A stretch of DNA of 64,000 nucleotides, from the NCBI GenBank assembly GCA_045863395.1, contig BTVJ01000032.1, positions 18,159 to 82,158 on the forward strand, given 5' to 3'. This DNA is from Myxococcales bacterium (GTDB lineage Bacteria > Myxococcota_A > UBA9042 > JABWCM01 > BTVJ01). The notes below the pieces were generated by a model. It was not told the DNA's origin and made no database searches. It saw only the letters and a list, made by a program, of their open reading frames with translations. Below are positions 8,054 through 28,376 of the stretch, in pieces. Position 1 is the stretch's first letter, and every line of letters begins with the position of its first letter. Both the position numbers and the translations under genes were made by a program.

Positions 8054-8068
8054 GGCGCCCCTCCGCGC

Positions 8069-11000: not shown

Positions 11001-11344
11001 GCGACGTGGTCGGCGTAGCGAAAGGCATAGTAGCGACCGAAGGCCCGGATGGCGCCGCACCCCGAGCTGAAGTCGGTGTCGCCGCTGGGCATGAGCGTCT
11101 CGGGCCACCAGTCCAGGAGCCCCGCGACCCGCTTCTCGTGGAAGTCGTCCACGAAGCGGATCGCGTAGTTGGGGCGGAAGTGCAGGCCCGGCACCCGCCC
11201 CCCCTCCGGGGCATCCACCTTGGCGTCGATGACGCCGAGGGCCACGTGGGCGGGGACCCTGCCCCTCCACTCCTCCAGCAGGGACTTCACCCCCTTCACG
11301 ATCTGGGTCCCGGTCCCGCCCACTCCTAGAATCAAGACTGGCAT
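8069..11344 (-). CDS. FtsZ/tubulin-superfamily GTPase-domain protein (1091 aa; N-terminal tubulin-like domain, long coiled C-terminal region)
   Basis: ATG at 11344 (plus CAT 11342-11344), GGAGG 5 nt upstream, 14 bp after the stop of the vWA gene. N-terminus MPVLILGVGGTGTQIVKG (T1-loop-like GGxG). SSGCGAIRAFG is T3-like. VVGSLGNGTCGGSFLDVATI matches the FtsZ/tubulin signature GGGTG[ST]G (T4). The remaining ~800 aa are Ala/Arg/Leu-rich and helical. The ORF-track ORF 8069..11902 extends upstream into a Gly/Arg/Pro-rich region judged non-coding. Confidence 0.68.
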   Translation of the reverse strand: MPVLILGVGGTGTQIVKGVKSLLEEWRGRVPAHVALGVIDAKVDAPEGGRVPGLHFRPNYAIRFVDDFHEKRVAGLLDWWPETLMPSGDTDFSSGCGAIRAFGRYYAFRYADHVAATVRAMLDDVTALNIRSVGALGGDWRVFVVGSLGNGTCGGSFLDVATIARAEVTRHMPNVQVHGTGVFIAGSVTRGGNSGRLADRVGANGYGALLELQYEFNRYGAAGVRPRSPRTLRAAEGTWSFSPSPDDPPLHGAYLLEGRNLAGQTLDYPSLIHMAAHGLANLVAGVDDAQRLLDSWAASPSPRRLGSLAGVTLAVPAQQLTKWLVAEWGAQVAGTALSAADGPWRAVLADVAPDGTKRLLPEAATVDASVDFFLEHVLRMREVGPDGGNQFNQVFELFGPDDEALKKGLDRVTSNLAGAEKPDDAVAAASQLVDWVERNVKGLAAARTAALLDGTRSRWSRVPPNLDNPADAGLRWLIDQRVGRFVDAGAIGVLQVWIRELCDELARNRDSIAIHETRAWLNRPQDGNLDLQARLTTLRREAEGFWSLFRRGKIVELGAEVKDDARRFFTFHLWDTKIGAVTNLYDRAIGYLRALGSAADQLGALLRAPRLLGQLQAVAETEASALDGADRGARDTGRNAVRPVIPVGGGETTRRRLLARVASGASTSAEAVLRSLSEPLRERFAAALLALPRAEQEELVAWRRQGVTPLDQVASDSANRLRETLEGVIAARADATLRSETRIDALLFEEASALVRRLEQIQTAERDAIDRKERTTWEQEVEGRAGRAAAAAMGHLTFADAEADRLTARNLYLAGRIGQAISFATPFWSLRPQARGVPTRYCFVIYPKEATLIGPAIQAHGQHMAGADLPTIHATASATIDPRTVFVAQAHVGASLFDLNLQSEHDLYERMPAADQTYWPHTTREYSQAARSMLHGTGSTTDWGAPLLALAEGQGILARSEGGPWTLTRRIPGDAAAGRRAFAAGQVGPAGEVELLDWLGGSTTEATNLRDGLRGLLWESLRAQAASAGWGAPADTLQDLAAALRQRASAVVDPLHRQALDRQARAMDDLARELVNLAGAEIPAVLRVGAG

Positions 11345-11358
11345 GACGCCCTCCGGTG

Positions 11359-13734
11359 TCAGTGTTCCTCGACTCGAATCGGGTACGCGGTGGTGTCGAC
11401 CACCGACCCGCCCTGCAATTCGCGCAGCATGATCGAGCGCCCGCCGTGGCGAGCCTCGTCCAGGGTGATCACCCGCGCCTCCCGCTGGATCCGGCGCCGA
11501 GACGGGCGCCGAAGCCGCGGCAGGGGGTCCGTGTCCCCATCCAGGGACGCCTCCCGATCCAGCTCCCCTTCCCCCGCGGGCAGCGTCGCGTCCCACAGGC
11601 GGAAGGTGCCGGGCATGGACCCGGGCAGCACCCCGAGCACGGGCATGCCGCGGGCCAGGTCGCTGCCGGTGAACGCCTCGCGGGTGGCCTGGGTGAACCC
11701 GCCGGCCTGGAGGTGCACGAAGAGCGGCTGGCGGCGGATCAGCGCCCAGGCGCCCTTGAGGCCGGCGCCGTGGGCGGTGCGCAGGTCCCGATTGTCCGTC
11801 GAGGTCCCGATGAAGAGCCCCGGTGGGAGCTGCGGGCGCGTCGCCCACAGGACCGCGAGCACCAGGAGGAGGACTCCCGCGATGCCGATTGCCACCCACC
11901 ACAGCCAGAAGAGCGGCGGGGACTCGATGACCAGCGGGATCTCCACGCAGTGCTCGCCGGCGCTCGCCGCCGGAGGGACGCAGTCCGGGCAGCGCACGAG
12001 GACGGGGCGCGCGGGCATCGGGGGAGCCGCAAGCTCGGGGCGGAAGCAGGCGCGGGCGACGTAGCTGCCCGGCGGCGGGTCGAAGCCGAGGCCGAAGGCG
12101 CGCTCCCAGTGGTCTTGTCGCTCCGCGGGAGACACGACGTGGAGGTCACCGCCGCACGCCAGGTCGATGACCCCGGAGCGGGGGCCGCCAGGCACGGCGA
12201 TGATCCGGGCGGCGTCGGCCACGTCCTTGCCCGTCTCGTCGGTCAGGGTCACCCGCGTGGGGATCGTGGCGGGGCCACAGCGCTCGTCACAGGACACGCC
12301 GAGGCGGCGGCTCGCCTGCTCGTAGACGTGGAGCCAGTCTGCCCGGAGGGGGCCGAGAGGGGCGTCGGGGCGCATGGAGTCTCCGCCGACGACCGTGTAG
12401 AGGCACGGCGGAGGCGGAGGCGGAGGCGGGACATACACCTTGACGGAGACGTCGCCGAGGCGCAGGAGCCCCCCGTCGTCGTCCTGGGGCAGCACGAAGG
12501 AACTCCCTGGCCACGCGCGCTTGAGCTCGGCGCAGAGCGCGTCATGGACCAGCCGGACGGGCGCGGCGCCCTCCGGCACGTCGCCCGCGGGGAGCACCGC
12601 GGTGGTCGCGCCCTCGATGCGCGGGCGCAGGGAGCCACGCTCGAAGCGGAGTGTCTTCCGCTCGCCCTCTACTCTGCGGGGCGGAGCGGTGATCGACCAC
12701 TCGGCGGTCCGGGTGGTCCCGACCCGGACGTCCCACCGGACCTCCGCCTGGACGGCCAGGGTCGATCGGGGAGACGGGGCCGGGTCGGCAGGCTCTCCGC
12801 GACACACGAGCAGACTCGCGGCCTCGTCTGATCGAAGCCCAGCGCCGTGCCCCCGCGCCACGAGCCGCAGCGTCCGGGGCACCTCCAGCTCCACCTTGTG
12901 CCCCTCGGGCGGCTTGGTGGGGTCGTAGACCGCCGCCAACGTTGGGAGGCCAAAGAGGACGTCGTAGACCACGTGGTCGGGCGGCGGGGTGGTGCAGGCC
13001 GGATGGTCCGCGCAGTCTGGATCGTCACAGTCGGCGCGCCCGTCCCGGTCCTCGTCGATGCCGCCGGTGCAGATCTCGGGCGGCGGTGGCACGTAGACGT
13101 CGCAACGATCCCACCGCAGGCGCAGGCGCCGCTGCTGGCGTTCGACCCACTCCACGTAGGGGCGGTTGTCGAAGCCGCGCCGCACCTCTTCTTCACCGTC
13201 GGTGACCACGCAGATGTCGAAGAGGCTCGCGTCGTCGGGGATGTCCTTGTCGGTCGTGAACTCGGCGCCCAGCTCCAGCTCCGTCTTGATGACCTGGAAG
13301 ATGGAGTAGGAGATGTAGCTCTTCGGCGCGTTGTAGAGGCGCGCGTCGTCGCTGAAGGCGGCGTCGACGCGCGAGGCGGCCTCGTCGGGCAGGAGCCCCA
13401 CGGCCCCGCCGATGGGCGCGTGCTGGTCCTTGTCACCGAGCTGCCAGAAGCTCACGCGGACGTCGTCCCGCCCCCGGTGCCCAGCGAGCAGGTCCCGCGC
13501 CCGCCGTCGCGCCCCCTCCATGGCCTGCGTGAACGAGAAGGCCCGCGGCTGCCCGGTGGCGGGGTCCTTGGCCCACGACATGGAGCCGCTGCGGTCGACG
13601 AGGAAGAGGACGCGGCGCTCGGGCGCGGCGTCAGCCACGGCGGGCGCGAGGAGGGTGGACAGCACGAGGGAGGCACAGACGAGCGCCACGCGCGGCCAGC
13701 CCAGAACCCTCAGGTGTGCACCCCGCTCGACCAT
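11359..13734 (-). CDS. Secreted/membrane-anchored von Willebrand factor A (vWA) domain protein (791 aa)
   Basis: ATG at 13734 (plus CAT 13732-13734). Signal-peptide-like N-terminus MVERGAHLRVLGWPRVALVCASLVLSTLLAPAVADA. MIDAS motif RVLFLVDRSGSM...TDGEE. Cys-rich module CDVYVPPPPEICTGGIDEDRDGRADCDDPDCADHPAC and a PPPPPPPP stretch. C-proximal TM helix FWLWWVAIGIAGVLLLVLAVLW followed by a ~170-aa tail. Confidence 0.75.
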   Translation of the reverse strand: MVERGAHLRVLGWPRVALVCASLVLSTLLAPAVADAAPERRVLFLVDRSGSMSWAKDPATGQPRAFSFTQAMEGARRRARDLLAGHRGRDDVRVSFWQLGDKDQHAPIGGAVGLLPDEAASRVDAAFSDDARLYNAPKSYISYSIFQVIKTELELGAEFTTDKDIPDDASLFDICVVTDGEEEVRRGFDNRPYVEWVERQQRRLRLRWDRCDVYVPPPPEICTGGIDEDRDGRADCDDPDCADHPACTTPPPDHVVYDVLFGLPTLAAVYDPTKPPEGHKVELEVPRTLRLVARGHGAGLRSDEAASLLVCRGEPADPAPSPRSTLAVQAEVRWDVRVGTTRTAEWSITAPPRRVEGERKTLRFERGSLRPRIEGATTAVLPAGDVPEGAAPVRLVHDALCAELKRAWPGSSFVLPQDDDGGLLRLGDVSVKVYVPPPPPPPPCLYTVVGGDSMRPDAPLGPLRADWLHVYEQASRRLGVSCDERCGPATIPTRVTLTDETGKDVADAARIIAVPGGPRSGVIDLACGGDLHVVSPAERQDHWERAFGLGFDPPPGSYVARACFRPELAAPPMPARPVLVRCPDCVPPAASAGEHCVEIPLVIESPPLFWLWWVAIGIAGVLLLVLAVLWATRPQLPPGLFIGTSTDNRDLRTAHGAGLKGAWALIRRQPLFVHLQAGGFTQATREAFTGSDLARGMPVLGVLPGSMPGTFRLWDATLPAGEGELDREASLDGDTDPLPRLRRPSRRRIQREARVITLDEARHGGRSIMLRELQGGSVVDTTAYPIRVEEH

Positions 13735-13843
13735 GGCCGCGACGGTAGACCACCACGGCCAATCTGGCAAGGCGCAAGTGGCATAGAGACACAACGAGGC
13801 ACTCCTCCCGCACGGCAGCACTGTGAGCGGTTTCTGGGCGCGA

Positions 13844-16800
13844 TCATCCTCCCTCGCCCGCTGCGCCGCGGCCCTGGGCGATCAGTCCAAGGAAGATGCC
13901 ACCGAAGACCGACATGGCCGTCCACATGACGACCGCAGCGAACCAGACGTCGGACCCAAGTTGCAGCGCCCCGGCACCGGCACCGGAGAGCAAGGCGGCG
14001 TCCGTGTCACCCATCGCCACGAGGAGTCCTGCACTCTCGAGCGCCGCGATCACGACCGCAACGCCATAGACGGGAAGGATGCGCCGACCGACCAGGCCCC
14101 ACGTTCCACCGGTGGGCGACTGCACGCGCTTGCGCAGGTCGAAGGCCAGGAAGGCCAGCCCCCCAAAGAGCGCCAGCACGACCACGGAGACATAGGAGAT
14201 GCCTCCGGTCGCCGCCAGGTCGTTCCAGGTCTTTGCCAGGCTCAGCGTGAACATGCCGCCACCCAGCACGCCGGACCACAGGGGTGAAAAGCGCGCCAGC
14301 ATACCCGGCGCGTTGACCTCGGGCCGCTCCTTCTTCAGTCGCTGCTTCAGGAGGCCCGCCATGTCGAAGCGGAGCTGACGCAGCAGGAAGCCGTGGGCCT
14401 CGACCAGGAGCCTCGGGGACGCCGCTCGAAGTGCGTCTGCGGACCTGTTGTCGTTGGTTGACGGGTCGCCCACTCCCAGCACCGCACACAGCGCTGCCTC
14501 GTCGAGTGACGCGAGGGCACGCTCCAGGTCTTTGTCCGCGTTTCTGCGAACCATGACGGAATCGCGCACGGATGTCGCCCACCCGTCGAGGTCGCCCACC
14601 ATGGTCTCGAAGAGGGCCATCTCCGGCCACGCAAGCCCCGCCGAACGAAGCGCCGCGAAAAACCGCGGCAGCTCCTCCCGCATCGACTCAAGCTCGCCCG
14701 CATCCAGACGGTCCGCTTCACCTCGGGCAACGACGACCCTGAGTCTTGAAACGATATCCCTCCCCGCGGCCCGGGCATCCGCAGTGTCACCACCGAGCGC
14801 GGCTGCCCAACCCAACAACCCGGGCTCCTTGTCGGGACTCACTCCCAGAAGCCGCTCCAAGTCCCATGCCCAGTCACTGACACGGGCCCAGGTCGCGGGA
14901 TGTGCCGTCACGTCCGGGAGAGTGGGTCTTGTCTCCGGTATGGTCTGGATGGCCTCACCCAGATCGACCGCCCCCATCATGGCAAGTGCGTCGGCAACGG
15001 CGTGCAGCCGAGCGCGAAGTCGCACCCAGGCCCCTTCTGTTCCGCCCGGTCCGCCGCGGACACGCGCGGCGTCCAGCGCCCTCATCGCTCCGAGCAGCAC
15101 GTGCATCCGGGTCCCGCTCCAGGGTAGGACACTCTCTGCCTCCTCCCAGAACGAGTCGGGCGGGTCGAGGCGAAGCAACGCCCACAGGAGCCGCACACTC
15201 TGCACCACGTCGGGGACCAGCACCTCCGCGTTCTGCGGCAAACCTTCCAGGAGTGACGCGAGCCCGATTGCCGCCTGATCGATCAGGAACTTGTCGCCAT
15301 CGTCCCCTGCGTCCGCCCTCTCGCATCCCTTCGCAAGCACCGCGTGAACCGTCGCAGCCGTGACCTGGTGGTCGTGCAGGAGCCACCGGAGCCCTCCAAC
15401 ACCCGCGCTCGTGAGCCGCACTGCCAGGTCGGCGCGTCCCACCCGTCCAGCGGTCGCGTCAGGCGTGCCCCCAAGGTGCCACACATCCGGGAGCCCCGCC
15501 TCCTCCAGCAAGGCGCCCCACGGCAGATCGCGCGTCGCTGGGGCCTCGAGGAGCAACACGAGCTCCGCCACCCTCGCCGCGAGCCACAGAGGGTCGCGCA
15601 GCGCAACCACCGATGAGCGACACAGCCGGAGACGCTCGATGACCGCGTCCGCGTCTACCCGGGCCACGGCGGGCAGCCCGCGTCCGAGAGCGAGCGACGC
15701 TGCCACGTCGAACGGGGCGAGCGCCGCCACAGCGGCATCCACGTCAGGGACCGCCTCGGGGGCGTGAGCGACGACGAACGCCAGACTCACTGCGGCGGAG
15801 CACCCGAGGTCCGCCGCCGGCCCGAGACGACCCCCATGCCTGGCGAGGAGCCCGGGGCTCAGCATCGCGTCCACGACGAGCTGGCGAGCACGGGGATAGG
15901 CGGTCAACGCACGCACGAGCGCGCGCAGACCCATGTGGTGCTGGTAGCCTGGCGTGCCCTTGTGCATCAGAGTGCGGCTGAGGGCAGTGATGGCGGCAAT
16001 CCAGGGAGCCTCCCCCAGTGGACGCGTGGCAAGCTCGGCGAAACCATGGAGTGCCGCGGACTGGTCGAATGGATCCTCGGGCAGCGGTGCCGCGAGCAGG
16101 ACCTCCGCGTCCAAGCCCGGCAACGGCACACCTCGCCCAGCGAGGGCGCAACGCAGGTGGATGAAGTGACGTCTCACGTGCTTGCGGCGGAGCGGGTCAT
16201 CACCAAACCACCTCTCCACCAGCGGATCGGGGTGAGCGCCAGCGCTCAAGCGCTCGTTGGCGGCGGCGAGCTCTTCGTGGAGACTCGGGGAACGACTCGC
16301 CAGCGCAGCAAGGGCGCAGGATGCTGGAATCCACGTAGAGCGGACACGCGCGTGGAACGCCTCGCGGACGAAAGTGACAATCGGCTCAGTCGGCGGAGCC
16401 CAGCACAGCGCCAGGAGGGTCGGGGCCCATGTGAGATCTTCTCCGTCGCTCCTGCGTGGGCGCGGGACGCCCCGTGCACCAGCCGAATTGCCCTCGTCGA
16501 CCGGTCCGCGCCTGCTCACAGGCGCCGCCTGGGCGTCCGCTCCTCGGGGAGCGAACACCCACGGAAGCAGGCTCGGGTCGTCGAGCAGAACGCCGGCCCA
16601 ACTCTGCGTCACAGGGTCGAGCGTGGGCCACTGCGCCACGAGCGCTGCTCCGCTCTTTCCGACGAGCCGTACGAGCTGGGCTACGCGCCGCACGGCCTCG
16701 GACGCCGGCTTCCCGCGCAGCGGCGGTAGAGTGCGCAGCGCCGCGCGGATTCGCGACGCCCCCTCGCCCGACCCGTCCCAGCCGTCCAGCAGCGCTGCGG

Positions 16801-16852
16801 CGGCCTCGTATTCCTCAGAAGCGTCGGATATCGCGACCATGTCTGCCCTCAT
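13844..16852 (-). CDS. Large alpha-helical (HEAT/ARM-like) protein with C-terminal polytopic membrane domain (~1002 aa)
   Basis: The ORF-track ORF begins at a TTG (16912). The first ATG is at 16852 (MRADMVAISDASEEY), with an alternative ATG at 16840. About 860 aa of Leu/Ala-rich helical repeats precede 4-5 TM helices at the extreme C-terminus (GGMFTLSLA...VVVLALFGGLAFLAF...VYGVAVVIAALESAGLLVAMG...VWFAAVVMWTAMSVFGGIFLGLIA). It is the first gene of the minus-strand operon, downstream of the repeat-rich intergenic region. Confidence 0.58.
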   Translation of the reverse strand: MRADMVAISDASEEYEAAAALLDGWDGSGEGASRIRAALRTLPPLRGKPASEAVRRVAQLVRLVGKSGAALVAQWPTLDPVTQSWAGVLLDDPSLLPWVFAPRGADAQAAPVSRRGPVDEGNSAGARGVPRPRRSDGEDLTWAPTLLALCWAPPTEPIVTFVREAFHARVRSTWIPASCALAALASRSPSLHEELAAANERLSAGAHPDPLVERWFGDDPLRRKHVRRHFIHLRCALAGRGVPLPGLDAEVLLAAPLPEDPFDQSAALHGFAELATRPLGEAPWIAAITALSRTLMHKGTPGYQHHMGLRALVRALTAYPRARQLVVDAMLSPGLLARHGGRLGPAADLGCSAAVSLAFVVAHAPEAVPDVDAAVAALAPFDVAASLALGRGLPAVARVDADAVIERLRLCRSSVVALRDPLWLAARVAELVLLLEAPATRDLPWGALLEEAGLPDVWHLGGTPDATAGRVGRADLAVRLTSAGVGGLRWLLHDHQVTAATVHAVLAKGCERADAGDDGDKFLIDQAAIGLASLLEGLPQNAEVLVPDVVQSVRLLWALLRLDPPDSFWEEAESVLPWSGTRMHVLLGAMRALDAARVRGGPGGTEGAWVRLRARLHAVADALAMMGAVDLGEAIQTIPETRPTLPDVTAHPATWARVSDWAWDLERLLGVSPDKEPGLLGWAAALGGDTADARAAGRDIVSRLRVVVARGEADRLDAGELESMREELPRFFAALRSAGLAWPEMALFETMVGDLDGWATSVRDSVMVRRNADKDLERALASLDEAALCAVLGVGDPSTNDNRSADALRAASPRLLVEAHGFLLRQLRFDMAGLLKQRLKKERPEVNAPGMLARFSPLWSGVLGGGMFTLSLAKTWNDLAATGGISYVSVVVLALFGGLAFLAFDLRKRVQSPTGGTWGLVGRRILPVYGVAVVIAALESAGLLVAMGDTDAALLSGAGAGALQLGSDVWFAAVVMWTAMSVFGGIFLGLIAQGRGAAGEGG

Positions 16853-16933
16853 CTGGTCCCAACTCGCCTTTGCCTGGGTGCCGACGGTGCCACTCCCGAG
16901 TCGACGGGTCAACCCTCGTGGGTGTACTGCGGC

Positions 16934-17121
16934 CTCTTAGAGGGTGTATTCAAAATGGCCCGTCGCGAGCGCGTGGGCGCGCCCGCATGGCAAGGAGCGG
17001 GCTTCCCGACGAGGGGGCGCGTACTCGTGGTACTCGTCCCCTCGTCGGGAGGCCCGCGACGCGGCCAAGCGGGATGCGACCGCGCGCGTAGCAGGGCCAT
17101 TTTGAATACACCCTCTTAGGC
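16934..17121. repeat. Hairpin element: ~22-27-bp near-perfect terminal inverted repeats flanking a ~134-bp GC-rich core with a nested hairpin
   Basis: Left arm ctcttagagggtgtattcaaaatggcc (16934-16960); right arm ggccattttgaatacaccctcttagg (17095-17121). 22 bp are perfect, the extension has 1 mismatch. The AT-rich arm core tattcaaaatgg stands out in 70% GC DNA. Inner nested IR cccgacgaggggg...cccctcgtcggg (around 17020-17065). Confidence 0.7.
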
Positions 17122-17274
17122 GCCGGTGCATAATAACCTGATCCATCGAGGGCCCCGATGCGCCCCGCTGGCAGTCTGGCGGGACCGCAGGCAGGGCCAG
17201 GTCCTTCCAAGGTCTCGCCAGGCTGTCAGCGGGGATGCAGCGGGGGCCGAATGGCACAGGTTATTGTGCACCGG
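17121..17274. repeat. Second hairpin element directly abutting the first: 20-bp inverted repeats (1 mismatch) flanking ~114 bp
   Basis: cgccggtgcataataacctg (17121-17140) versus caggttattgtgcaccggcg (17255-17274). Both elements are followed by the pentamer cttag. Confidence 0.65.
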
Positions 17275-17536
17275 CGCCTTAGTCGTAGCGCACCTCCCCG
17301 AGGCACCTCCAGGCCCAAAGCTCCCGGGGGCCCAACGCGTGCGGGGACCACCAATCGCCAGGACCACCAGCGCACTCCCACCACCGGACCCGGGCTTGAC
17401 AGGAACGCCGTGGATGAAGCACCGTAGCGCAGTCGGCACCGTAAGCGCCCGTGCAGTAATGGCCGGTCCATTCTGCCCCTCCTGCATCCCCGCTGCAACC
17501 TGGCGATACCCTGGAAGGACGCGGCCCTGCCTGTGG
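17185..17536. repeat. ~70-bp sequence present twice in inverted orientation (~85% identity), ~213 bp apart
   Basis: The reverse complement of 17185-17254 (ccattcggcccccgctgcatccccgctgacagcctggcgagaccttggaaggacctggccctgcctgcgg) aligns with 17468-17536 (ccattctgcccctcctgcatccccgctgcaacctggcgataccctggaaggacgcggccctgcctgtgg). Compared by eye. Confidence 0.6.
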
Positions 17537-17931
17537 ATTTCCGAGGCTGCCTGCTGGGCGCGTCGAGGCTCTCGATCAATCAGGTTGTCATTTACCGGCG
17601 GCTGATTGGTCTTCGGGACCGTGTCTCAATCATGTCGGCAGAGAGGGGTCAGACCCGACGCCGGGAGCGTTCACCACGCTGGTCCGGCAAGCACATCGGA
17701 CCCCGGGCGAGGGTCCCGTGTCAGAACCGAGGTTCCGAGCGCTCTACGGAAGCGGTCTGAGCAACGGCGCTGAGCCCACGAGCGGCGGGGGGAACACACC
17801 ACGAAGAAACGGGGAGGCGACTCAGGCAGTCACGGCGCGTGAGAGACGTGTCAGACGCGGCGTCGAGATGACTCTACCGTGGAGTCATCGACGGGGCGGC
17901 CGTCGGACGGTGACCCACTCGGAGGTGTCCC

Positions 17932-18717
17932 ATGAGCAAGGGTGCAGTGGTCGGGGTGGTGATGGCGCAGGTGGTGGTGGTCGGGGGCCTGGGGATCTGG
18001 ATGTTCCAGCGGGGCCAGGAGCAGGCGGAGCGGCAGGAGCAGCGCCTCGCAGATCTGGAGGCGGTGACCTCCGAGCGCGTCGCGGCGCTGGAGGAGACCG
18101 TCGAGCAGCAGGGCCACGCCATCGTCGCGCTGGAGGTGGCGGTCCGGGCGGGGAGCGCGGCCCTCGCCGCGCGCGTCGACGCGGTGGAGTCTTCGGTGGC
18201 GAAGCTCGACGCGGAGCGCGTGGCGCCGCTGGAGCGCCGGGCGTCGGGCATCGAGAAGGGGCAGTTGCAGCTCGCCGAGCGCGTCGACCACAACGACGCG
18301 GCGCAGGCCGCGAAGGCGGAGCAGGTGGTCGCCGAGATCTCCTCGGTGAAGGAGGACATGGCGGCCCTGAAGGAGCGCGTGGTCTCCGTGGAGCGGAGCG
18401 CGACCTCGACCGGAGTGGACCTGGCGAAGCTCGCTGCGCTCACGGGGAAGAACGACCGCCGCATCCGCGACCTGGTGGACGAGCACGCGGCCCTGGTCGC
18501 CACCGTGGAGCAGGTGCGGAAGAGCGGCACCCAGGACTCGCGTGAAGCAATCGAGGCCATGGAGCGCAAGCTCGCGAGCCTGGACGCCGCCGTGCGCCTG
18601 GCCGCCGAGCAGGTCACGAAGGAGTACCTGGAGTCGCATCAGGATGACTCCAAGGCGGACATGGCGCGGGAGATTGCTGCCCGCACGCGCTTCGAGGTGC
18701 TGGAGGGGGCGCGGTGA
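17932..18717 (+). CDS. Membrane-anchored coiled-coil protein (261 aa)
   Basis: ATG at 17932 with GGAGG 6 nt upstream. N-terminal TM helix VVGVVMAQVVVVGGLGIWMF. The rest is heptad-like Ala/Glu/Leu/Arg-rich (LADLEAVTSERVAALEETVEQQ...). Confidence 0.65.
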   Translation: MSKGAVVGVVMAQVVVVGGLGIWMFQRGQEQAERQEQRLADLEAVTSERVAALEETVEQQGHAIVALEVAVRAGSAALAARVDAVESSVAKLDAERVAPLERRASGIEKGQLQLAERVDHNDAAQAAKAEQVVAEISSVKEDMAALKERVVSVERSATSTGVDLAKLAALTGKNDRRIRDLVDEHAALVATVEQVRKSGTQDSREAIEAMERKLASLDAAVRLAAEQVTKEYLESHQDDSKADMAREIAARTRFEVLEGAR

Positions 18718-18831
18718 CGGGTGCGGGCGGTGGCGCCGCGGCCGCCCGCGGCTCCACCTCTCCGAGGCTGCGCGACGACGACCCTGGTCCGCGGGGCGAT
18801 GGCAGCAGAGAGCCCTGCAGGAGGAGTGGCG

Positions 18832-19293
18832 ATGAGGGTGACAATCCTGGCTCTGGCGATCATCGTCGGCGGATGTGCGACATCGAGACGGCACGCTCCG
18901 GCGACACCGCAAGCTACGTCAGCGAGCTTCCCCGGAGGCGCATCAGCGCAGGGCGGCGGCTGGGCCACGAGCCCCGTCGGGACCTCCACCCCCGACGTGG
19001 AGGTCCTGTGCGACGGCGCAAGGCCGCAGATCCGGTTCGACGACGCCGCGCGCCAGCGTCTCTTCCCGAAGCACGAGGTCGTGTGGGTCCTGAGCCCCTT
19101 CGAGGGAGGCGGAAAGTGCCGGCTCTACGGCCTCGTGCGGAGGCCCCACCGGGGAGCGACGTTCCCCGACGACGTGCGCCTTCGGGCGACCGCCACGTTC
19201 CCGGACGACGGCGACCGGTGCCGCTGCGTCCCGACCAAGGCGCGGGCCCACGAGGGGTGGTTCCCGTCGGCGATCTCGGAGGTGAACCCATGA
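18832..19293 (+). CDS. Lipoprotein (153 aa)
   Basis: ATG at 18832 with GGAGGAG 8 nt upstream. MRVTILALAIIVGGCATS is a signal peptide plus lipobox (VGGC). Its stop overlaps the next start (ATGA at 19290-19293). Confidence 0.6.
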   Translation: MRVTILALAIIVGGCATSRRHAPATPQATSASFPGGASAQGGGWATSPVGTSTPDVEVLCDGARPQIRFDDAARQRLFPKHEVVWVLSPFEGGGKCRLYGLVRRPHRGATFPDDVRLRATATFPDDGDRCRCVPTKARAHEGWFPSAISEVNP

Positions 19294-20504
19294 GCTTGAC
19301 AGGGCCCCGTGCCCCCGAGGGGGGAGCCGCGCAGCTCGACGGCCCGGACGCGACCGGCGGGCTGCGCGAGCGCCTCGGGTGGGTGCGCCTCGGTTCGGAG
19401 GCCGAGGTCCGCGACCTGCTCACGTCACACCCGGCCTGGGAGGCGCTGGCGCCCATCCGGCAGAGCGCCACGGACGCCCGGGGGGCCATCGCCGACCAGG
19501 GCTTCGAGGTGGATCCCGGCGCGCTGGGCCTCACCCCCATCCTTGCCGAGGCCCGAGAGCGGTGGGGGCTCGCGCTGGACCTGCGCCTCTTGATGGTGCC
19601 GCGGCCGGAGTACAACGCCTTCGTGCTGGCAAACCCCTTCGACGGAGAGGTCGTGCTCGGGGCGTCGTGCTCGCTGGTGGAGGACTTCGAGCCCCGGGAG
19701 CTGGCCTTCGTCATCGGGCACGAGCTCGGCCACCACGCCCTCGGGCACACGGCCATCGCCGGCCGCCGCCGGCAGCTCGCGGATCACGTGGCGCCCCACC
19801 ACCCGCTGCGGCTCCTGGACGCGTCACTGGGGCGGCGGCAGGAGATCAGCGCGGACCGGGCAGGCCTCGTGGTCTGCGGCTCGGCCGCCGCTGCGCGCAC
19901 CGCGCTGCTCAAGGCCGCGACCCAGACGCCAAACCGCCGCCTCGCGGCCGCCGTGCTCGCGGGCGGGCCCGACTGGGCCTTCGTGGACCCGGAGCTGGAT
20001 GGGTTCGCCCCCTGGGCTCAGTCCCACCCGCCAGCGCGGGTGCGCGTCCGCGCCCTGGAGGGCTTCGCGCGGGACGCTGACGGCCACTCCCTCGCCGACC
20101 TGGACGCCCGCTGCGACGGGTGGCTCGATGCGCTGGAGGCCGACGCCCTCAAACGGGATCGGGCCACCGTGGAGCGATTCGCCGCGGCGGTCGGGGCCGT
20201 CGTCGGGGCGACCGCAGGCGTGGCGGAGATTCCGGCGCTCTTCGCGGCCCATGCAGGCCCCTGGCTGGGCCAGGCAGGCGACCTGGAGGACGCCTGCGCC
20301 ACCCTCCGCGAGCTGGCGAGCCCGGGGCGCCGCCTGCGCGTGCTCGCGGCGGCCATCAGCGTGCTGTCCGCGGACCTGCGCCTCGGGGCCGAGGCGGGCG
20401 CCCGGACCCGCGCGCTGGCGACGCGCCTGGGGCTGCCACCGGAGGCAGCGGACCGGCGCCTCGCCGCGGCCCGGGAGTCTTTGGCCCTGCGAGGGACGGA
20501 GTGA
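19290..20504 (+). CDS. M48-like zinc metallopeptidase (404 aa)
   Basis: ATG at 19290, translationally coupled to the lipoprotein gene. LAFVIGHELGHHALGH HExxH motif in an HtpX/Ste24-like context. In frame with, and internal to, the ORF-track ORF 18714..20504. Confidence 0.62.
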   Translation: MSLTGPRAPEGGAAQLDGPDATGGLRERLGWVRLGSEAEVRDLLTSHPAWEALAPIRQSATDARGAIADQGFEVDPGALGLTPILAEARERWGLALDLRLLMVPRPEYNAFVLANPFDGEVVLGASCSLVEDFEPRELAFVIGHELGHHALGHTAIAGRRRQLADHVAPHHPLRLLDASLGRRQEISADRAGLVVCGSAAAARTALLKAATQTPNRRLAAAVLAGGPDWAFVDPELDGFAPWAQSHPPARVRVRALEGFARDADGHSLADLDARCDGWLDALEADALKRDRATVERFAAAVGAVVGATAGVAEIPALFAAHAGPWLGQAGDLEDACATLRELASPGRRLRVLAAAISVLSADLRLGAEAGARTRALATRLGLPPEAADRRLAAARESLALRGTE

Positions 20505-20593
20505 ACCGCGGAGGCACCCGAACGGCCCCGCAATCCAGGGACTCTCAGACACCCGATGGACTCGTCATCGCACCACGACGCGGAGGAGCACCC

Positions 20594-22876
20594 ATGAGGC
20601 GCCGTACACGCCCGACCCCGACCGCAACCATCACACGCCGCGTGGCATGGTTCCGCCTGATGCGGCCCGGCGCCACGCTGGACGACGTGCCCGCCGCCAT
20701 CGTGCGGGCGTTGCGTGAGCTGGGGGACGCGCACCCGCTGCGCCTCGCCGTCACGACCCTCACCGGGACAGACAGCCCGACGGTGGACACATGGGTGTCC
20801 ATCACCTCCGACCAGGAGGCTGCCTCCGCTGCGCTGAGCACGCTGCAGGAGGCGCTGGGGTGGTTCTCTCTCGGGACGGCCGACTGCTCCGCCGCGCTCC
20901 ACGAGCACCGGGAGCGCCTCCCGGAGCAGCTCGCCCTCGTGCCCCACCCCGCCGATGGGAGCCTGCTGCTACCACGAGGGCCCGCTGCGGTTCAGCCCCT
21001 GCCCGCGCTGCTGGCGCACCTGGCTCGGCAGGGCACGCCCACCATGGTCCAGGTGGAGGCGAGCACCGTGGGCCGGGACGAGGCCCTCGCGGTCGTCCCG
21101 GCGCTGCGCACGGCCCGCGCCGTCGCCGACGCCCTGGCTCCGCACCGCCTGGACGTGGCCTCACCGCAGGACCTGCTCGCGCCCCCGATGGCCCTGCGCG
21201 GGGCCGACCCGGAGCGTCTCATCGCCGACGTGGTGGGAAACCTGTGGCGGGTCCGCGTCGCGGTGCGCTCCGCGCGTCCCCTGCCCGAGCGCGTCACCAC
21301 GGCCATCCGCCTGGCCTTGGAGGAAGGCGGCGTGCGGCTCGCGCAGGAGGCGACTTCCCCTGCCACGGGCGCCGGCATCGTACACACCACGGTCCTGCCG
21401 GCGGTGTGGCAGGTCCCCGTCGTCACAGCCCCGTGCGGCCACCTGCGCGTCGAGGACCTGCCGCGCCTGCCTGCCCCCGTCGGGGCGCTGGACAAGGGCT
21501 TCCTCCTCGGCGAGACCGACGACGGCCCGCGCACCCGGGAGCTGCGCCTGGACCCGGAGGTCCTCGGACGCCACGCCTACGTGGTGGGCAAGACGGGCAC
21601 CGGCAAGACCACCCTGCTGGAGTCTCTGGTGGCCAGCGCCATCGAGCGCGGCGACCAGGCGGTCATCGTCGTCGACCCCCATGGCGACATGACCGAGAAG
21701 CTCCTGCGTTGGCTCCCCCGGGAGCACGCGGACCGCGCCTTGGCCATCGACTTCGGTGACCCGGAGCGGCTGCCGTCCCTCAACCTCCTCGAGGCCCGCG
21801 ACGAGCAGGAGCGCGAGTTCGCCATCGGCGAGCTGGACGCGCTCTTCCTCGACATGTACGGCCCGGAGATCTGGGGGCCGCGCCTCCAGGACACCTTCCG
21901 CAACCTGGCGTCGCTGCTGAGCATCGACCCGGAAGGTCCCGGCACCCTCGTCGACCTGCTGTGGGCGGCCAACCTGCGCCACGACCCCATCCGGCACCGC
22001 CTGGAGGCCATCGCCGAGTCGTCCGGCTCCATCTCACACCGGATCTTCCTGGAGCAGATCCAGCAACGACAGTACGGCGACGGGTCCCTGCAGGAGCTGG
22101 TGGCCTACTACCGCTCCAAGTTCTCGCCCTTCGTGGACAACAAGACGCTGCGCCTCGTGCTCGGGCGCCCCAAGTCCACCCTGGACATCGCCCGGTTCAT
22201 CCGCGAGCGCCGCGTCTGCCTGTTCAACCTCAACAAGGGCCGCATCTCGTCCCGCTACGCGAGCCTCATCGGGCGCATCCTGACCGCGCGCATCTTCCAG
22301 GCGGCCCTCGCAAACGGACGCCTCCCCCCGGCCGAGCGCCCACCGGCCCTGCTCGTGCTGGACGAGTTCCAGAACCTCGTGTCCCCCACCGTCGAGGACA
22401 TCCTGGCCGAGGCGCGCAAGTACCGCCTCAGCGTCGTCCTCGCCAACCAGCACCTGGCCCAGGTGCGCAGGAGCCGCACCGACGTGCGGGGAGACCGCTC
22501 GTCCATGCTGGACGCCATCTTGGGCAACGTAGGGACGCTCGTCGCGTTTCGGCTCTCCGGGCTCGACGCGACACAGCTCGCCGCGGAGCTGGGGGGCCAC
22601 GTACCGGCCGAGACCCTCTCGTCGCTGCCGGCGTGGCACGCGGTCTGCCAGGTGAGCGAGAGCCATCGGTGCGTGCCCCCGTTCCTGGCGCGGACGCGCC
22701 CGATTGGCGCGTGTGGAGACCCGAGCGTCGCGCGATCTGTCAGAAGCCGCAGCCGGCGGACTCTCTGTACCCGGCTGGACGACGCGGAGCGGGCGATCCG
22801 CCAACGCGTGCTCAGCCGCATGGGCATCGTGGACGTGCCGGACGACCCCGTCGGGCACCTGCTGGAGAGGCTGTGA
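20594..22876 (+). CDS. FtsK/HerA/TraD(VirD4)-family P-loop ATPase with ~400-aa N-terminal domain (760 aa)
   Basis: ATG at 20594 with GGAGGAG upstream. Walker A HAYVVGKTGTGKTTLLESL. Walker B ALLVLDEFQNLV. VLANQHLAQV, a sensor-like motif. In frame within the ORF-track ORF 20120..22876. Confidence 0.75.
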   Translation: MRRRTRPTPTATITRRVAWFRLMRPGATLDDVPAAIVRALRELGDAHPLRLAVTTLTGTDSPTVDTWVSITSDQEAASAALSTLQEALGWFSLGTADCSAALHEHRERLPEQLALVPHPADGSLLLPRGPAAVQPLPALLAHLARQGTPTMVQVEASTVGRDEALAVVPALRTARAVADALAPHRLDVASPQDLLAPPMALRGADPERLIADVVGNLWRVRVAVRSARPLPERVTTAIRLALEEGGVRLAQEATSPATGAGIVHTTVLPAVWQVPVVTAPCGHLRVEDLPRLPAPVGALDKGFLLGETDDGPRTRELRLDPEVLGRHAYVVGKTGTGKTTLLESLVASAIERGDQAVIVVDPHGDMTEKLLRWLPREHADRALAIDFGDPERLPSLNLLEARDEQEREFAIGELDALFLDMYGPEIWGPRLQDTFRNLASLLSIDPEGPGTLVDLLWAANLRHDPIRHRLEAIAESSGSISHRIFLEQIQQRQYGDGSLQELVAYYRSKFSPFVDNKTLRLVLGRPKSTLDIARFIRERRVCLFNLNKGRISSRYASLIGRILTARIFQAALANGRLPPAERPPALLVLDEFQNLVSPTVEDILAEARKYRLSVVLANQHLAQVRRSRTDVRGDRSSMLDAILGNVGTLVAFRLSGLDATQLAAELGGHVPAETLSSLPAWHAVCQVSESHRCVPPFLARTRPIGACGDPSVARSVRSRSRRTLCTRLDDAERAIRQRVLSRMGIVDVPDDPVGHLLERL

Positions 22877-23691
22877 TGAGCAGCGAGCCAGTTGACCGGG
22901 CCAGGCGCCGGGCGCTCCCGCTCCTGCCCGCGGCGCTGTGCGCCATCGCCGACGGCGCGCCCACCGCCGCGCGCCGGGTGGCGTTGCTCCGGGCGATCCG
23001 CGCCATGGGAACGCCGTGGGAGGCGACGGCGCTCCTGCTCACCATCCTCGAAGAGCGGGCGGTCCGCCCGGAGCACATCCGCTCCCTCTATGCCCTGCGG
23101 GCGCTCCTGGTCGAAGAGAGTGCCACGGAGGCCCGCACAGAGGAGGCGCTCGGCTACGCCGCCGATGTGGCGCTCGCGGGCGGGCCGGGCGTGGACCAGC
23201 TCGCGGTGCTGGCGGCGGCCACCAGCGCGCTGGATGGGGACTGGGAGGTGCTCTCCAGGCGCGGGATCCCTGGCCGCCCGACCTCCGAGGATACGCGCGC
23301 CACGATGCGGAGCATCCTCGCGCGGGAGGTGACGCCGCCCCACGAGAACCCCATCGACCTGTTCCGCGGCGCCCTCCCCATCGCGGGCCTCCCGACCCCG
23401 GGCAGCGCGGACCCTGTGCGCTTCTACGACGGCCTGGCCGGGTCCATCTCTCTGGCTCCACAGGAGCGGATCGCCGTCGTGGAGAGGCTCGGGAGCCTCA
23501 CCCAAGTCCAGATCGACGCCCTGGTCGGGATCTTCGAGGAGGAGCGCGTCAAGTTCCTGTCGCTGGACGAGACGCACTACCCCCAGCTCCGCAGGCTGGC
23601 CGTCGAGTTCGGGGTGCAGTGGATCGAGGTCTACGAGGGCCTCACGGGGCGGCACGTCGTCACGCCCCGGCGGCGCGCAGGCGACGCTTGA
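22876..23691 (+). CDS. Hypothetical protein (271 aa) coupled to the ATPase gene
   Basis: ATG at 22876 overlaps the ATPase stop codon (GTGATGA). Part of the ORF-track ORF 21961..23691. No recognisable motif. Confidence 0.5.
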   Translation: MSSEPVDRARRRALPLLPAALCAIADGAPTAARRVALLRAIRAMGTPWEATALLLTILEERAVRPEHIRSLYALRALLVEESATEARTEEALGYAADVALAGGPGVDQLAVLAAATSALDGDWEVLSRRGIPGRPTSEDTRATMRSILAREVTPPHENPIDLFRGALPIAGLPTPGSADPVRFYDGLAGSISLAPQERIAVVERLGSLTQVQIDALVGIFEEERVKFLSLDETHYPQLRRLAVEFGVQWIEVYEGLTGRHVVTPRRRAGDA

Positions 23692-23780
23692 CAAGAAACG
23701 ACGCGAGCGCTGTGATGCGCGGCGGTGGTCTGCCTCTTGACGCCGAAGGGAGACAACCGCCGGACGCAGAGGAGTCGGGG

Positions 23781-25862
23781 ATGGCGACAGACCGCGCAGA
23801 CAAGGAAGAGGTCACGCAGGATATCCAAGACGAGGCGCAGCGCGCCGTCGCGGAGCGCCTCGTGGAGCTCAGCTCGCGGGGGACTGAGCTCCCCAAGAAC
23901 CACGGGACGGTGATGAAGCTCGTCGTCACTCGGCTCCGCAGAGCGCTCAAGCAAAGCAAGGTGCAGGAGGACCGCTCGTCGATCAGTGCGTGGTGCCGCG
24001 CGGACACCTGCGCCACCGCGCTGCGCGTGCGCTACATGGAGGATACGGGCACCGACCTCAGGGACGCTGCCAGACGACGGTACACCGGGCTCGGGTTCAG
24101 CCCGGAGGACGCGGAAGAGTGGGCGGGCCGCATTGAGATTCGGTACTATGAGTCGGGGCCCAGCACACAGTTGGGGGAGCACTCGACAGAGTCCGACGTC
24201 TCGTACGTGACGCTTGCGTGGCTGAAGACGGTCACCCTGAACGACGCCCTCAACCGTCGGCGCAGGGGGTGGAGGGTCACGGCCTGGGACGACGCGGACT
24301 GCCCGGCCGATGAGGTCACCGCGGCCGGAGGCCCGCAGGGTGCCCCACCGCCGGCACCGGACAAGCTGGTGGAAGCCCGTAACATGCTGGACCGCATTGC
24401 AGACCTCGTTCCCACGCTCCAACGCCGCGTCGCGCTCGTCGCGTCCGACATGCTGGCCCACCCGGACGACGAGCCGGCCGAGAGGGCGCTGCGACTGAAC
24501 CTGACACCAGGGAACATCCACACGCAGACCTATCGGTTCAGGCAGGCGCTGGCCGCGGCCGACCTCTGCCGGCGGTCCAGTACAGCAGCAGTGACACCCG
24601 AGGATCCGGACGACGGCCCCGGGGGAGCGGGGAGAGGAAGGAAGACCATGAGCGCGCGAGACACGGTCGGAAAGGACCGCGCAGCGAAGAGCCAGCGCAC
24701 GGCTCCACGGACCCAGACACCAGGCGGAGCCACGGGACCAGGCCCGGCGGTCGACTCCGCCACGGGTCAGGCCCCGCTCCTCGCGGAGGCTGCCCGAGTG
24801 GTCGGGGACCTCGTGCTGAGCGGCCAGCGGGTCGACGCGGAGGCGCTGGCCTCGGAGGCGCGCGGCGCCCGGGGAGCCGTCGAGGCGGCGCTGGAGGCCA
24901 CGGACGGCGCGCTGATCGACGAGGCCATGCCCGGGCTCGCGGAGACCGGCGCCTGGCTGGCCGCGCACCCGGACCCCGCCACGCTACCGAACGAGGTCGC
25001 TGAGGCTTCCCTCGCGGTCCTCGAACGGCGACACCATGTGGAGGCGCTGCTTCTGGGGGCCGAGCAGATCGTGGGACGCCGCGTCGCGAGCATGGACCTC
25101 GCGACGTCCCTGGAGGCCTTCGACACGGCGGGACGCGAGACCCTCTGGGCCTTCGTGCCCTTGAACAGTGCGCGACGCGCGCGCGCCGCGGCGCTCGACC
25201 CGGAGGCGCGCGAGAGGTGCTGGTGGTGGTCCGAGGGGGCAGACCTCGCAGAGGACTCCGTGCTCGCGCTGCGCAAGGCAGCTCGACTCATCGCGGTGTT
25301 CCCGGCGGCGCAGGGGGAGCTGGACGCGCTGATCGCGGCGGCCCGCGAGACCCGCGCCGAGGCCATGCGGACCACGAAGGGACACTCCGCCAGGCGGATG
25401 GCGAGCCGCGGGAGCCCGGAGAGGAGCGCACCGGGCGACAAACGTCTCAGGGTGGGAGACATGAGAGTGACCACCGCCGCGGGGGCGCCGGACAACGACG
25501 CCGAACGGCTGGGCGTCGTGTACTTCCTGCAGTTCCGCGCGGTGCCAGGGCACGACAATGAGCGCCTGGTCGCCCACGGCAGCGAGGAGGAGGTCGTTGT
25601 CAGACCGCTCGACGGAGTCACTCTCTCCGTGGACGACGACGCGCTGATCATCGACTATGAGATGTCCTGCGACCCCGACCCGAGCAGACCTCCGGTGCTG
25701 GAGCCGGAGCGAGGAGCGATCATCGTGGCGACAGAGCCGTTCACTGGGCGCTTCGTGCTGCCATTCCAGTCCATGGACACGGCCAGCACGACCGCGATAC
25801 TCCGCGTGCCCCGGCGCGACCAGCCGGACCTGGTCGTGCAGATCCCCTGGGAGGTGCCATGA
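23781..25862 (+). CDS. Sigma-70 (ECF-type)-like N-terminal domain fused to a ~420-aa C-terminal domain of unknown function (693 aa)
   Basis: ATG at 23781 with GAGGAG 7 nt upstream. SYVTLAWLKTVTLNDALNRRRRG resembles sigma region 2.4 (WLxxIxxNxxxDxxRRR). LQRRVALVASDMLAHPDDEPAERALRLNLTPGNIHTQTYRFRQAL resembles region 4 (HTH). The first kb is lower GC than its surroundings. Its stop overlaps the next start (ATGA). Confidence 0.5.
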   Translation: MATDRADKEEVTQDIQDEAQRAVAERLVELSSRGTELPKNHGTVMKLVVTRLRRALKQSKVQEDRSSISAWCRADTCATALRVRYMEDTGTDLRDAARRRYTGLGFSPEDAEEWAGRIEIRYYESGPSTQLGEHSTESDVSYVTLAWLKTVTLNDALNRRRRGWRVTAWDDADCPADEVTAAGGPQGAPPPAPDKLVEARNMLDRIADLVPTLQRRVALVASDMLAHPDDEPAERALRLNLTPGNIHTQTYRFRQALAAADLCRRSSTAAVTPEDPDDGPGGAGRGRKTMSARDTVGKDRAAKSQRTAPRTQTPGGATGPGPAVDSATGQAPLLAEAARVVGDLVLSGQRVDAEALASEARGARGAVEAALEATDGALIDEAMPGLAETGAWLAAHPDPATLPNEVAEASLAVLERRHHVEALLLGAEQIVGRRVASMDLATSLEAFDTAGRETLWAFVPLNSARRARAAALDPEARERCWWWSEGADLAEDSVLALRKAARLIAVFPAAQGELDALIAAARETRAEAMRTTKGHSARRMASRGSPERSAPGDKRLRVGDMRVTTAAGAPDNDAERLGVVYFLQFRAVPGHDNERLVAHGSEEEVVVRPLDGVTLSVDDDALIIDYEMSCDPDPSRPPVLEPERGAIIVATEPFTGRFVLPFQSMDTASTTAILRVPRRDQPDLVVQIPWEVP

Positions 25863-27589: not shown

Positions 27590-27605
27590 GGGGGAGAGGC
27601 TCACC

Positions 27606-28376
27606 ATGTCCACCGGAAGGACCATCATCATCGGAGACGTCCACGGCTGCATCGACGAGCTGGAGGCGCTGCTCCGCCACGTGTGCCTGGAGCCCCGAGA
27701 CCGCCTCGTGTTCGCCGGCGATCTCGTGGATCGTGGGCCAGCCTCGGTGGGAGTCGTCCGGAGGACCAGGGAGCTCCTGGCGCGGCACCCGGGGAGCGTC
27801 TGTGTGGCGGGAAACCACGAGACGAAGGCGCTGCGATGGCGGGATCGAGGCGCGCCGAGGGAGTGGGAGCAGCCCATGCGCGAAGACGACTGGACGTTCC
27901 TCGACTCCCTCCCGCTGGTCATGCGCCTGCCCGAGCACGGCGCCACCGTCGTGCATGGCGGAGTCTTCCCGGCGTTCTTTGAGCGGTACGGGCGCATCGG
28001 CGAGGTCCCTCCTGACTGGCGCACGAGCCGCGACAAGCGCTGCGACCGTCTCCGCCGCTTCGTCCTGGTCCGGCACGTGGACTTGCGGGGAGAGATGACG
28101 GCGCTGGGATCGGAAGGGCCCGACACGGTCCACTGGACGGCACGCTACGACGGCCGGGAGGGCCACGTCTTCTTCGGCCACGACCCGCAGCTCGGCGGAG
28201 AGCCACTACAGACGCCGAGCGCGACGGGGCTCGACACCGCCTGCTGCTTCGGGGGCCGCCTGACCGCAGCGGTGCTGCACCCGGGGCAAACCGCGGCGGA
28301 GGCCGAGTTCGCGAGCGTCCCCGGCACCCGCTACGCCGAGCCGCGGTGCATGCTCGACGAGACCGGCGCGCTCTGA
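27606..28376 (+). CDS. Calcineurin-like metallophosphoesterase (PPP-family Ser/Thr phosphatase / ApaH-like), 256 aa
   Basis: GGAGAGG RBS. Motifs IIIGDVHGC, FAGDLVDRGP and VAGNHE. Confidence 0.8.
   Translation: MSTGRTIIIGDVHGCIDELEALLRHVCLEPRDRLVFAGDLVDRGPASVGVVRRTRELLARHPGSVCVAGNHETKALRWRDRGAPREWEQPMREDDWTFLDSLPLVMRLPEHGATVVHGGVFPAFFERYGRIGEVPPDWRTSRDKRCDRLRRFVLVRHVDLRGEMTALGSEGPDTVHWTARYDGREGHVFFGHDPQLGGEPLQTPSATGLDTACCFGGRLTAAVLHPGQTAAEAEFASVPGTRYAEPRCMLDETGAL

Follow-up and report, generated by a model that had tools for sequence, protein, structure and literature searches.

Probable tandem MITE-like elements of two families, with one decayed copy, between divergent operons of a Myxococcales genome

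Prokaryotic MITEs are described as elements shorter than 500 bp with terminal inverted repeats (TIRs) of about 4–30 bp, which are AT-richer than the genome and form very stable stem-loops; younger copies are flanked by direct repeats, and integration takes place in AT-richer intergenic DNA (PMC10969869). In other bacteria, inserted MITEs are known to change the activity of promoters, the stability of RNA and termination (PMC10969869). Among the described families, Correia/NEMIS of Neisseria, ERIC/IRU of enterobacteria, RUP of pneumococcus and QMITE2 of Coxiella resemble the repeats reported here (elements A and B) in their length of 100–200 bp, their TIRs of 20–30 nt and their short direct repeats (PMC10969869; see also PMC2229807 and PMC3184786). 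The resemblance extends to the lack of an ORF, an intergenic position near promoters, an elevated AT content and stable stem-loops. No sequence similarity exists between these families and A or B, whose host is a Myxococcales MAG of about 72% GC. Unlike in the four described families, two unrelated families stand here in tandem on one target site.

The analysis covered a 64-kb stretch of DNA (the window), the GC content of which is about 72%, the repeat island being less GC-rich. The island is held by a non-coding gap of about 1.09 kb (16841–17931) between divergent operons. The original prediction had placed it exactly at the divergent junction of two operons, and this was borne out, with gene starts at 16840 (minus strand) and 17932 (plus strand). 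The start at 16840 lies 96 nt from the left CTTAG, and that at 17932 lies 328 nt from element B'. Coding signal was absent from about 16850 to 17930, where the GC3 frame plot was flat. Four ORFs of 159, 123, 117 and 106 aa overlap the island; they were rejected as genes on the strength of the GC3 plot and because their homologues were only two spurious ORFs of the MAG. The features of the region are as follows.

13844–16840, minus strand: first gene of the left operon, 998 aa; its exact product is present in Logan DRR491770
16936–16940, plus strand: CTTAG, left flank of A; TTA at 16937–16939 is the first copy of the putative duplication
16940–17115, no strand: element A, 176 bp if TTA is duplicated (16941–17114 if CTTAG is); termini GAGGGTGTATTCAAAATGGCCC / GGGCCATTTTGAATACACCCTC; whole-length hairpin, non-coding
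16997–17057, no strand: inner hairpin of A, arms 16997–17024 / 17030–17057, 28 nt with a 5-nt loop, 89% complementary
17115–17119, plus strand: CTTAG between A and B, common to both; TTA at 17116–17118
17119–17278, no strand: element B, 160 bp if TTA is duplicated (17120–17277 if CTTAG is); termini GGCGCCGGTGCATAATAACCTG / CAGGTTATTGTGCACCGGCGCC; whole-length hairpin, non-coding
17278–17282, plus strand: CTTAG, right flank of B; TTA at 17279–17281
17283–17444, no strand: spacer from B to B', 162 bp, unique, with neither repeat nor coding signal
17445–17603, minus strand: B', inverted, decayed copy of the whole of B
17932–18717, plus strand: first gene of the right operon, 261 aa, coiled-coil-like

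No family match was obtained for the 998-aa product of 13844–16840. The left operon encodes giant proteins, one of them with a Tubulin_2 domain, and the right operon encodes the coiled-coil protein, an M48 peptidase and a HerA/FtsK-type ATPase with PADLOC mad8 as its best match. CHAT, NUDIX, DO-GTPase2, PspA, NYN, FtsH-like, kinase/FGE-sulfatase and vWA/PP2C genes follow further along in the neighbourhood. The product of 17932–18717 was identical to NCBI AMXMBFR64_33300, a protein of a Myxococcales MAG. Both flanking operons look like conflict/defence-type systems, not conjugation genes. No transposase, relaxase, reverse transcriptase or tRNA gene was detected within the 64-kb window, and neither was an IS with ends matching A or B.

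Several other identities were considered for the locus and rejected. A conjugative oriT or single-stranded DNA promoter was suggested by TrwB/TraD-like matches of the ATPase (20594–22876); the surrounding genes form a conflict/defence set (Tubulin_2, DO-GTPase2, CHAT, NUDIX, NYN, mad8-like HerA ATPase) with no relaxase or T4SS. A retron msr/msd region was considered in view of the myxobacterial host and of outer repeats enclosing a long inner hairpin, and was dismissed because no reverse transcriptase is adjacent and because A and B are symmetric palindromes without the msr-type asymmetry. A possible sigma-54 promoter, TGGCAC-N6-TTGT within B's right arm, was discarded by inspection because its spacing is wrong and GC is missing at −12.

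The island consists of three elements: A (16940–17115), B (17119–17278) and B' (17445–17603). The original prediction had described a first inverted repeat at 16934–16960 / 17095–17121 with a nested hairpin and a second one at 17121–17140 / 17255–17274. Both proved real and longer than described. The arms of A span 16930–16961 / 17094–17125 (32 nt, 91% complementary, 23 nt perfect), and those of B span 17115–17146 / 17251–17282 (32 nt, 88% complementary), with an inner stem at 17163–17186 / 17211–17234. The TIRs measure 22–27 nt in A, 23 of them perfect, and 22–26 nt in B, with one mismatch in the first 22; both fall within the range of about 4–30 bp given for MITEs. The same holds for the overall dimensions, A being 176 bp and B 160 bp long and both lacking coding signal. 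The end sequences of A and B can also be given as GAGGGTGTATTCAAAATGGCC and GGCGCCGGTGCAYAATAACCTG, and the A–B array is bordered by ...GCGGCCTCTTAG on one side and TCGTAGC... on the other. In the intact elements A and B, the inner half of the termini is AT-rich and the body is largely self-complementary. No relatedness between A and B was detectable apart from their flanks.

An inverted duplication of about 70 bp had also been reported at 17468–17536. The inverted copy was confirmed, but not its extent: it takes in all of B, 17118–17277 aligning with 17445–17603 in inverted orientation at 75–78% identity. This copy, B', lies 166 bp beyond B between degenerate flanks (GTAAG... / ...CTGAT).

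All of the five top-ranking inverted repeats in the 64-kb window fall within the island. Folded as single-stranded DNA, A reached a free energy of −84.7 kcal/mol (z −13.5) and B one of −74.8 kcal/mol (z −12.3). Among 3191 sliding 180-nt folds across the window, A ranked first (−147) and B second (−136.5), while folds outside the island had a mean of −81.8, a standard deviation of 11.4 and a minimum of −119.8. For the terminal 15-mer and 22-mer, 0.03 and 0.00 matches, respectively, were expected from shuffles. Taken together, the terminal-motif expectations, the folding z-scores, the fold ranks and the inverted-repeat ranks indicate that the repeats are not due to chance.

Such extreme fold stability, at a site between two operon starts, would also suit structured non-coding RNAs (one or several) acting on the divergent operons, or cis-regulatory hairpins in their 5' UTRs. 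A structured RNA had been among the candidates first put forward. A scan of Rfam 15 returned nothing but generic hairpin matches to animal miRNA models, the best at 29.8 bits and so far below the gathering cutoff of 95, and palindromes of this kind fold equally well on both strands. B' folded no better than shuffles (z −1.3) and has lost the hairpin. When the 67 pairs of B were traced in B', 43 were kept, 36 of them unchanged and 7 through one-sided changes; 23 were broken and none showed a compensatory double change. With no compensation among the pairs and 23 of 67 broken, the pattern is one of neutral decay and not of structural conservation, as expected of a dead transposon copy. The loss of the B' hairpin without compensation and the subthreshold Rfam match together make a conserved RNA unlikely. 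In addition, no sigma-70-like promoter was detected in 16700–18100, and the B-like copies described below occur in unrelated contexts on other contigs. The RNA explanation is therefore disfavoured, and we regard it as quite improbable.

A relative of the right operon bears on the same question and on a further one. The only relative found, a protein 90% identical at the amino acid level to the product of the first right-hand gene (P0002), is encoded at three loci (L018–L020), where homology to the window begins only at 17911. Upstream of this position, which lies 21 nt before the ATG, the three loci are wholly unlike the window, and so no empty site was available for comparison. The first gene can thus occur without a homologous upstream region, which speaks against a 5'-UTR hairpin of the operon. 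It also speaks against a regulatory DNA site specific to this locus, in the form of an operator array or a cruciform to which a regulator of the two conflict-system operons would bind, since the orthologous operon of the relative lacks the region. An elaborate regulatory site had likewise been proposed at the outset, and AT-rich inverted motifs are indeed conspicuous in a divergent promoter region at about 72% GC. However, the arms of A and B stand 130–160 bp apart and enclose fully complementary interiors, unlike operators, and no other copy of the motifs is present in the 64 kb. B moreover recurs on other contigs beside different sequence. A dedicated regulatory site is accordingly disfavoured as well and appears very unlikely.

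The junctions of the elements are marked by a single pentanucleotide. The sequence CTTAG occurs three times in the 64-kb window, exactly at the boundaries of A and B (16936, 17115 and 17278), which gives the order CTTAG–A–CTTAG–B–CTTAG. It had been noticed before that both hairpin elements end in CTTAG; this is correct, and an additional CTTAG is present at the left edge of A (16936). The trinucleotide TTA occurs 13 times in the window, with 5 of the 13 in the island. The three CTTAG all point the same way (the reverse complement being CTAAG) and so do not belong to the inverted repeats as prolonged arms. CTTAG, with TTA inside it, thus flanks A as well as B as a direct repeat, as in MITEs. 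As read from the sequence, the junctions fit a 3-bp target-site duplication (TTA) and a 5-bp one (CTTAG) equally well. As the first base of both elements is G and the last is C, duplicating TTA would automatically recreate CTTAG at each junction. In B', read in the orientation of B, the flanks are the degenerate TCA and, at the opposite end, C-TTA-C. Correia and RUP elements duplicate TA, whereas the apparent duplication of A and B is TTA or CTTAG. Tandem elements on the only CTTAG sites in 64 kb are also an example, from a GC-rich genome, of strong specificity for a target and of its regeneration.

The same junctions can be read in another way. REP/REPIN-type elements, or single-stranded DNA elements derived from IS200/IS605 (PATE-like), could have been moved by an HUH enzyme (RAYT/TnpA), inserting 3' of CTTAG and ending in CTTAG. 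The direct repeat would then represent target plus cleavage site and not a duplication. Occurrence of the same pentanucleotide at all three junctions agrees with this, and a head-to-tail order would arise naturally if the 3' end recreates the target. A and B are also whole-length hairpins, which form readily in single-stranded DNA. Their ends, however, are long mutual inverted repeats (22–27 nt) and not REP-like palindromes, a GTAG-type 5' motif is missing, and lengths of 160–176 bp exceed those of typical REP doublets. IS200/IS605 elements carry separate subterminal hairpins in direct orientation. A RAYT or TnpA gene, finally, is absent from the 64-kb window. An HUH/RAYT-type single-strand element is the main rival to the MITE-like reading; it accounts for the pentanucleotide at the junctions but leaves the long inverted termini unexplained, and we consider it improbable.

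REP/REPIN sequences mobilised by RAYT do resemble A and B in being intergenic, hairpin-forming, dispersed and non-coding. A and B differ from them in termini that are not self-palindromic, in flanking direct repeats, in a length about twice as great and in the lack of a RAYT in the window. The description of REP/REPIN (imperfect palindromes of about 20–40 nt with a conserved 5' tetranucleotide, no target duplication, an associated RAYT) therefore does not fit A or B. Of the two kinds of mobile repeat that had been suggested for the island, MITE-like or REP-like, the REP-like one is not favoured, while the MITE-like one is supported by the TIRs, the direct repeats, the non-coding nature, the decayed copy, the occurrence of B elsewhere and breaks in assembly graphs.

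The assembly breaks provided an independent view of the element boundaries. Logan assemblies are built on a de Bruijn graph with k = 31, in which all 31-mers are distinct (PMC12424806). Five Logan contigs ended at the island: DRR491770_3452 (at 16965) and SRR30634667_88729, SRR30634666_42201, SRR30634669_29625 and SRR25057008_56515 (at about 17253). The contig from DRR491770 (L021) matched the window at 100% identity along 13,122 nt, as far as 16965, which equals 16936 + 29. Three contigs from three other runs (L002–L004) started at 17253, which equals 17282 − 29, and the remaining one (L001) started at 17250. The contig ends thus lie 30 nt inside the outer CTTAGs, and break points were found at the element edges in five samples.

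With k = 31, contig ends at 16965 and 17253 are to be expected where the sequence to the right of 16936 and that to the left of 17282 each occur in more than one context in these samples, so that the outer limits of the two outermost CTTAGs are the boundaries of the repeats. If the insertion were merely present in some genomes and absent from others, the graph would have broken at about 16940 and 17278, which is not the pattern observed. The arms of A and B have no 31-mers in common, so the hairpins themselves cannot have caused the breaks. In L001, the break falls three bases earlier, after the first T of TTA (17279), which hints at a copy with another middle base, i.e., at a T-N-A target. 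The boundaries located in this way are consistent with the MITE-like reading; they fit HUH-mediated movement too.

Copies of B were sought in the rest of the genome by way of a spurious ORF of 106 aa (16940–17257, minus strand) that runs through B and A. In an exhaustive search against 1.84 billion representative proteins, it matched only two, both over residues 1–47, which are encoded by B: P0003 at 87% and P0004 at 70% identity. They are the hypothetical proteins AMXMBFR64_36510 (GMV41935.1) and AMXMBFR64_27950 (GMV41079.1) and come from two other contigs (69.8 and 96.0 kb) of the same MAG, AMXMBFR64. Outside the B-like stretch their residues differ from the window, and there is no continuation into A. 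These flanks, different from those in the window and without A, indicate that B is not tied to A and moves independently of it. Counted in this manner, B-like DNA is present at at least four places in the AMXMBFR64 genome, two of them recognised at the peptide level. The number is a lower bound and biased towards mutated copies, because the peptide route finds only copies without stop codons in frame. Judged from the peptide, TAA/TTA does not flank the P0003 copy at both ends. For A, no independent second copy was found, and multi-copy support consists of one contig end (16965).

These copies also bear on a purely local origin, in which a duplication and a palindrome-forming rearrangement would have built the island with no mobility involved. 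B and B' are neighbours, and no copy was recovered elsewhere at the DNA level, as such an origin would have it. It is contradicted by the B-like peptides encoded elsewhere in the MAG (two further contigs), by graph branch points that coincide, in five samples, exactly with the edges of the elements, and by the confinement of CTTAG to the boundaries. We regard local rearrangement as hardly credible.

Other searches for copies gave negative results. The terminal motifs of A and B had no additional copy in the 64-kb window, and nhmmer profiles of B/B' and of A revealed no further copies in the window or in any of the fetched loci. Six-frame peptides of the island matched no protein family in a word-indexed protein search; this search missed P0003 and P0004 too, so its negatives, including that for A, carry little weight. 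An exact match to the B terminus among 185,579 species-representative genomes returned one chance match (Butyrivibrio) and nothing real. The window's own B was not returned from these representatives, and the source MAG is thus evidently absent from the collection. Exact matching of the A terminus in JGI metagenomes gave 11 chance matches without extended similarity, in DNA of lower GC (44–66%), and an exact-terminus scan of IMG/VR gave 0. Exact patterns fail to find even the host's own diverged B copies, which limits the weight of all exact-terminus negatives. Among plasmids, neither the island (blastn) nor its 20-kb neighbourhood (megablast) found a match.

On this evidence, the island probably consists of tandem MITE-like elements of two families, together with one decayed copy (B'). 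A full-text literature search on MITEs in myxobacteria yielded nothing relevant. A and B are apparently undescribed families, unrelated to each other, in an uncultured Myxococcales lineage, although the kind of element, a common genomic parasite, is already known.

We infer the transposition mechanism, the size of the duplication and the multi-copy status of A. One element would have inserted at a single C-TTA-G site in intergenic DNA, duplicating TTA (or CTTAG). A second element would then have entered one of the regenerated sites, giving CTTAG–A–CTTAG–B–CTTAG, and B' would be an older, third copy, of B, in inverted orientation. A DDE transposase acting on a C-TNA-G target, with its gene in another part of the genome, would have mobilised the elements in trans.

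Ends of IS5-family elements (IS1031/IS427-type) begin with G (GAG.../GGC...; ISfinder). By analogy, the possible 3-bp TNA duplication and the G-initial ends of A and B offer a lead towards an IS5-family (IS1031-type) or PIF/Harbinger-like enzyme. Insertion sites of 3 nt have been reported for IS5-family elements of the IS1031 group (PMC2516522) and for PIF/Harbinger (PMC2213677). IS5 elements of the IS1031/IS427 type, PIF/Harbinger and Tourist-like MITEs are alike in a 3-bp T-N-A duplication (PMC2516522; PMC2213677). For A and B, the likeness to IS5-type elements is confined to the length of the duplication and the bases at the ends; a full-length IS ending like A or B was not found.

The position of A and B in the control region of the two operons would allow a regulatory side-effect. 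A more far-reaching proposal is that two MITE families sharing one rare target, C-TNA-G, build self-propagating "landing pads" in intergenic DNA: with G as first and C as last base, every insertion would create two fresh targets in a genome that otherwise has hardly any (3 CTTAG and 13 TTA in 64 kb). The hairpins of 160–176 nt, lying in the control region shared by the divergent conflict/defence-type operons, could then have acquired a regulatory role, for instance as insulators, cruciforms or processing sites in a 5' UTR; we regard this proposal as rather unlikely.

The general understanding of MITE-like elements is left unchanged by A and B. For this organism, the A and B repeats explain why short-read assemblies break at the locus. 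If the MITE-like reading is correct, the island would represent two new MITE families in an uncultured Myxococcales lineage, and A, B and B' would mark an insertion hot spot in the control region common to two large conflict-system operons.

The two operons that meet at the repeat-bearing intergenic region, together with further gene clusters of the conflict type in the window, have the following content.

3-16840, minus strand: left-hand operon, encoding at least five very large proteins, with lengths from 613+ to 1417 aa
1842-6095, minus strand: left-hand operon protein with a DUF6782 metallopeptidase-like region and weak helicase matches
8069-11344, minus strand: left-hand operon protein with a Tubulin_2 domain
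17932-28376, plus strand: right-hand operon, encoding a coiled-coil/SMC-like protein (261 aa), a 153-aa protein, an M48 metallopeptidase, a HerA/FtsK/TrwB-type ATPase (top match PADLOC mad8, 1.7e-20), and a TPR protein and calcineurin-like phosphoesterase
within 30983-47586: FGE-sulfatase, NUDIX, DO-GTPase2, PspA/IM30 and a CHAT protease (1291 aa)
42687-45935: FtsH-like protein, whose domains are a pair of AAA modules, a receiver domain and an M41 peptidase
46108-47586: NYN nuclease
49806-55477, minus strand: in consecutive order, a Ser/Thr kinase-FGE-sulfatase fusion, a second kinase, a PP2C phosphatase and a vWA protein

No family match was obtained for several proteins of the right-hand operon (17932-28376), which looks like an uncharacterised defence or conflict system, not a conjugation system. 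The same was true of nearly all the large proteins of the left-hand operon (3-16840). The first gene of the latter (13844-16840) has a GC content of 0.67-0.70, below that of the neighbouring genes, and its GC3 bias is weak compared with theirs. Domains of the conflict-system type are packed in one dense run at 30983-47586, and the gene row at 49806-55477 forms a signalling module of the sort usually seen in conflict systems of multicellular bacteria.

The two protein search methods differed in outcome for the residues encoded by the hairpin-forming MITE-like element B in a spurious open reading frame. The word-indexed search with a six-frame query including this peptide returned no matches, and an exhaustive search of representative proteins gave two clear ones, at 83 and 60 bits. 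Negative word-indexed results for GC-rich spurious frames are thus unreliable, since the 8000-candidate list was probably saturated by long Arg/Pro/Gly-rich queries.

A perfect TTGACA hexamer was noted at 17396-17401, in the unique spacer separating B from B', its inverted decayed copy; no acceptable -10 element lies 16-18 nt from it, and the promoter scan detected no promoter. A short palindrome, GATGACTC-TACCGTG-GAGTCATC, occupies 17867-17889, approximately 45 nt before the start codon (ATG) of the first gene of the right-hand operon. A role as an operator or as a small 5'-UTR hairpin is possible. The palindrome is not conserved in a relative with 90% identity, whose homology to the window begins at 17911.

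In this relative (Logan SRR23814901, locus L018:1-1399), the 90%-identical right-hand operon has a different minus-strand gene as its upstream neighbour, and the intervening region is unrelated to that of the window. The junction of the two operons is therefore not conserved, which suggests that these operons are mobile or shuffled cassettes.
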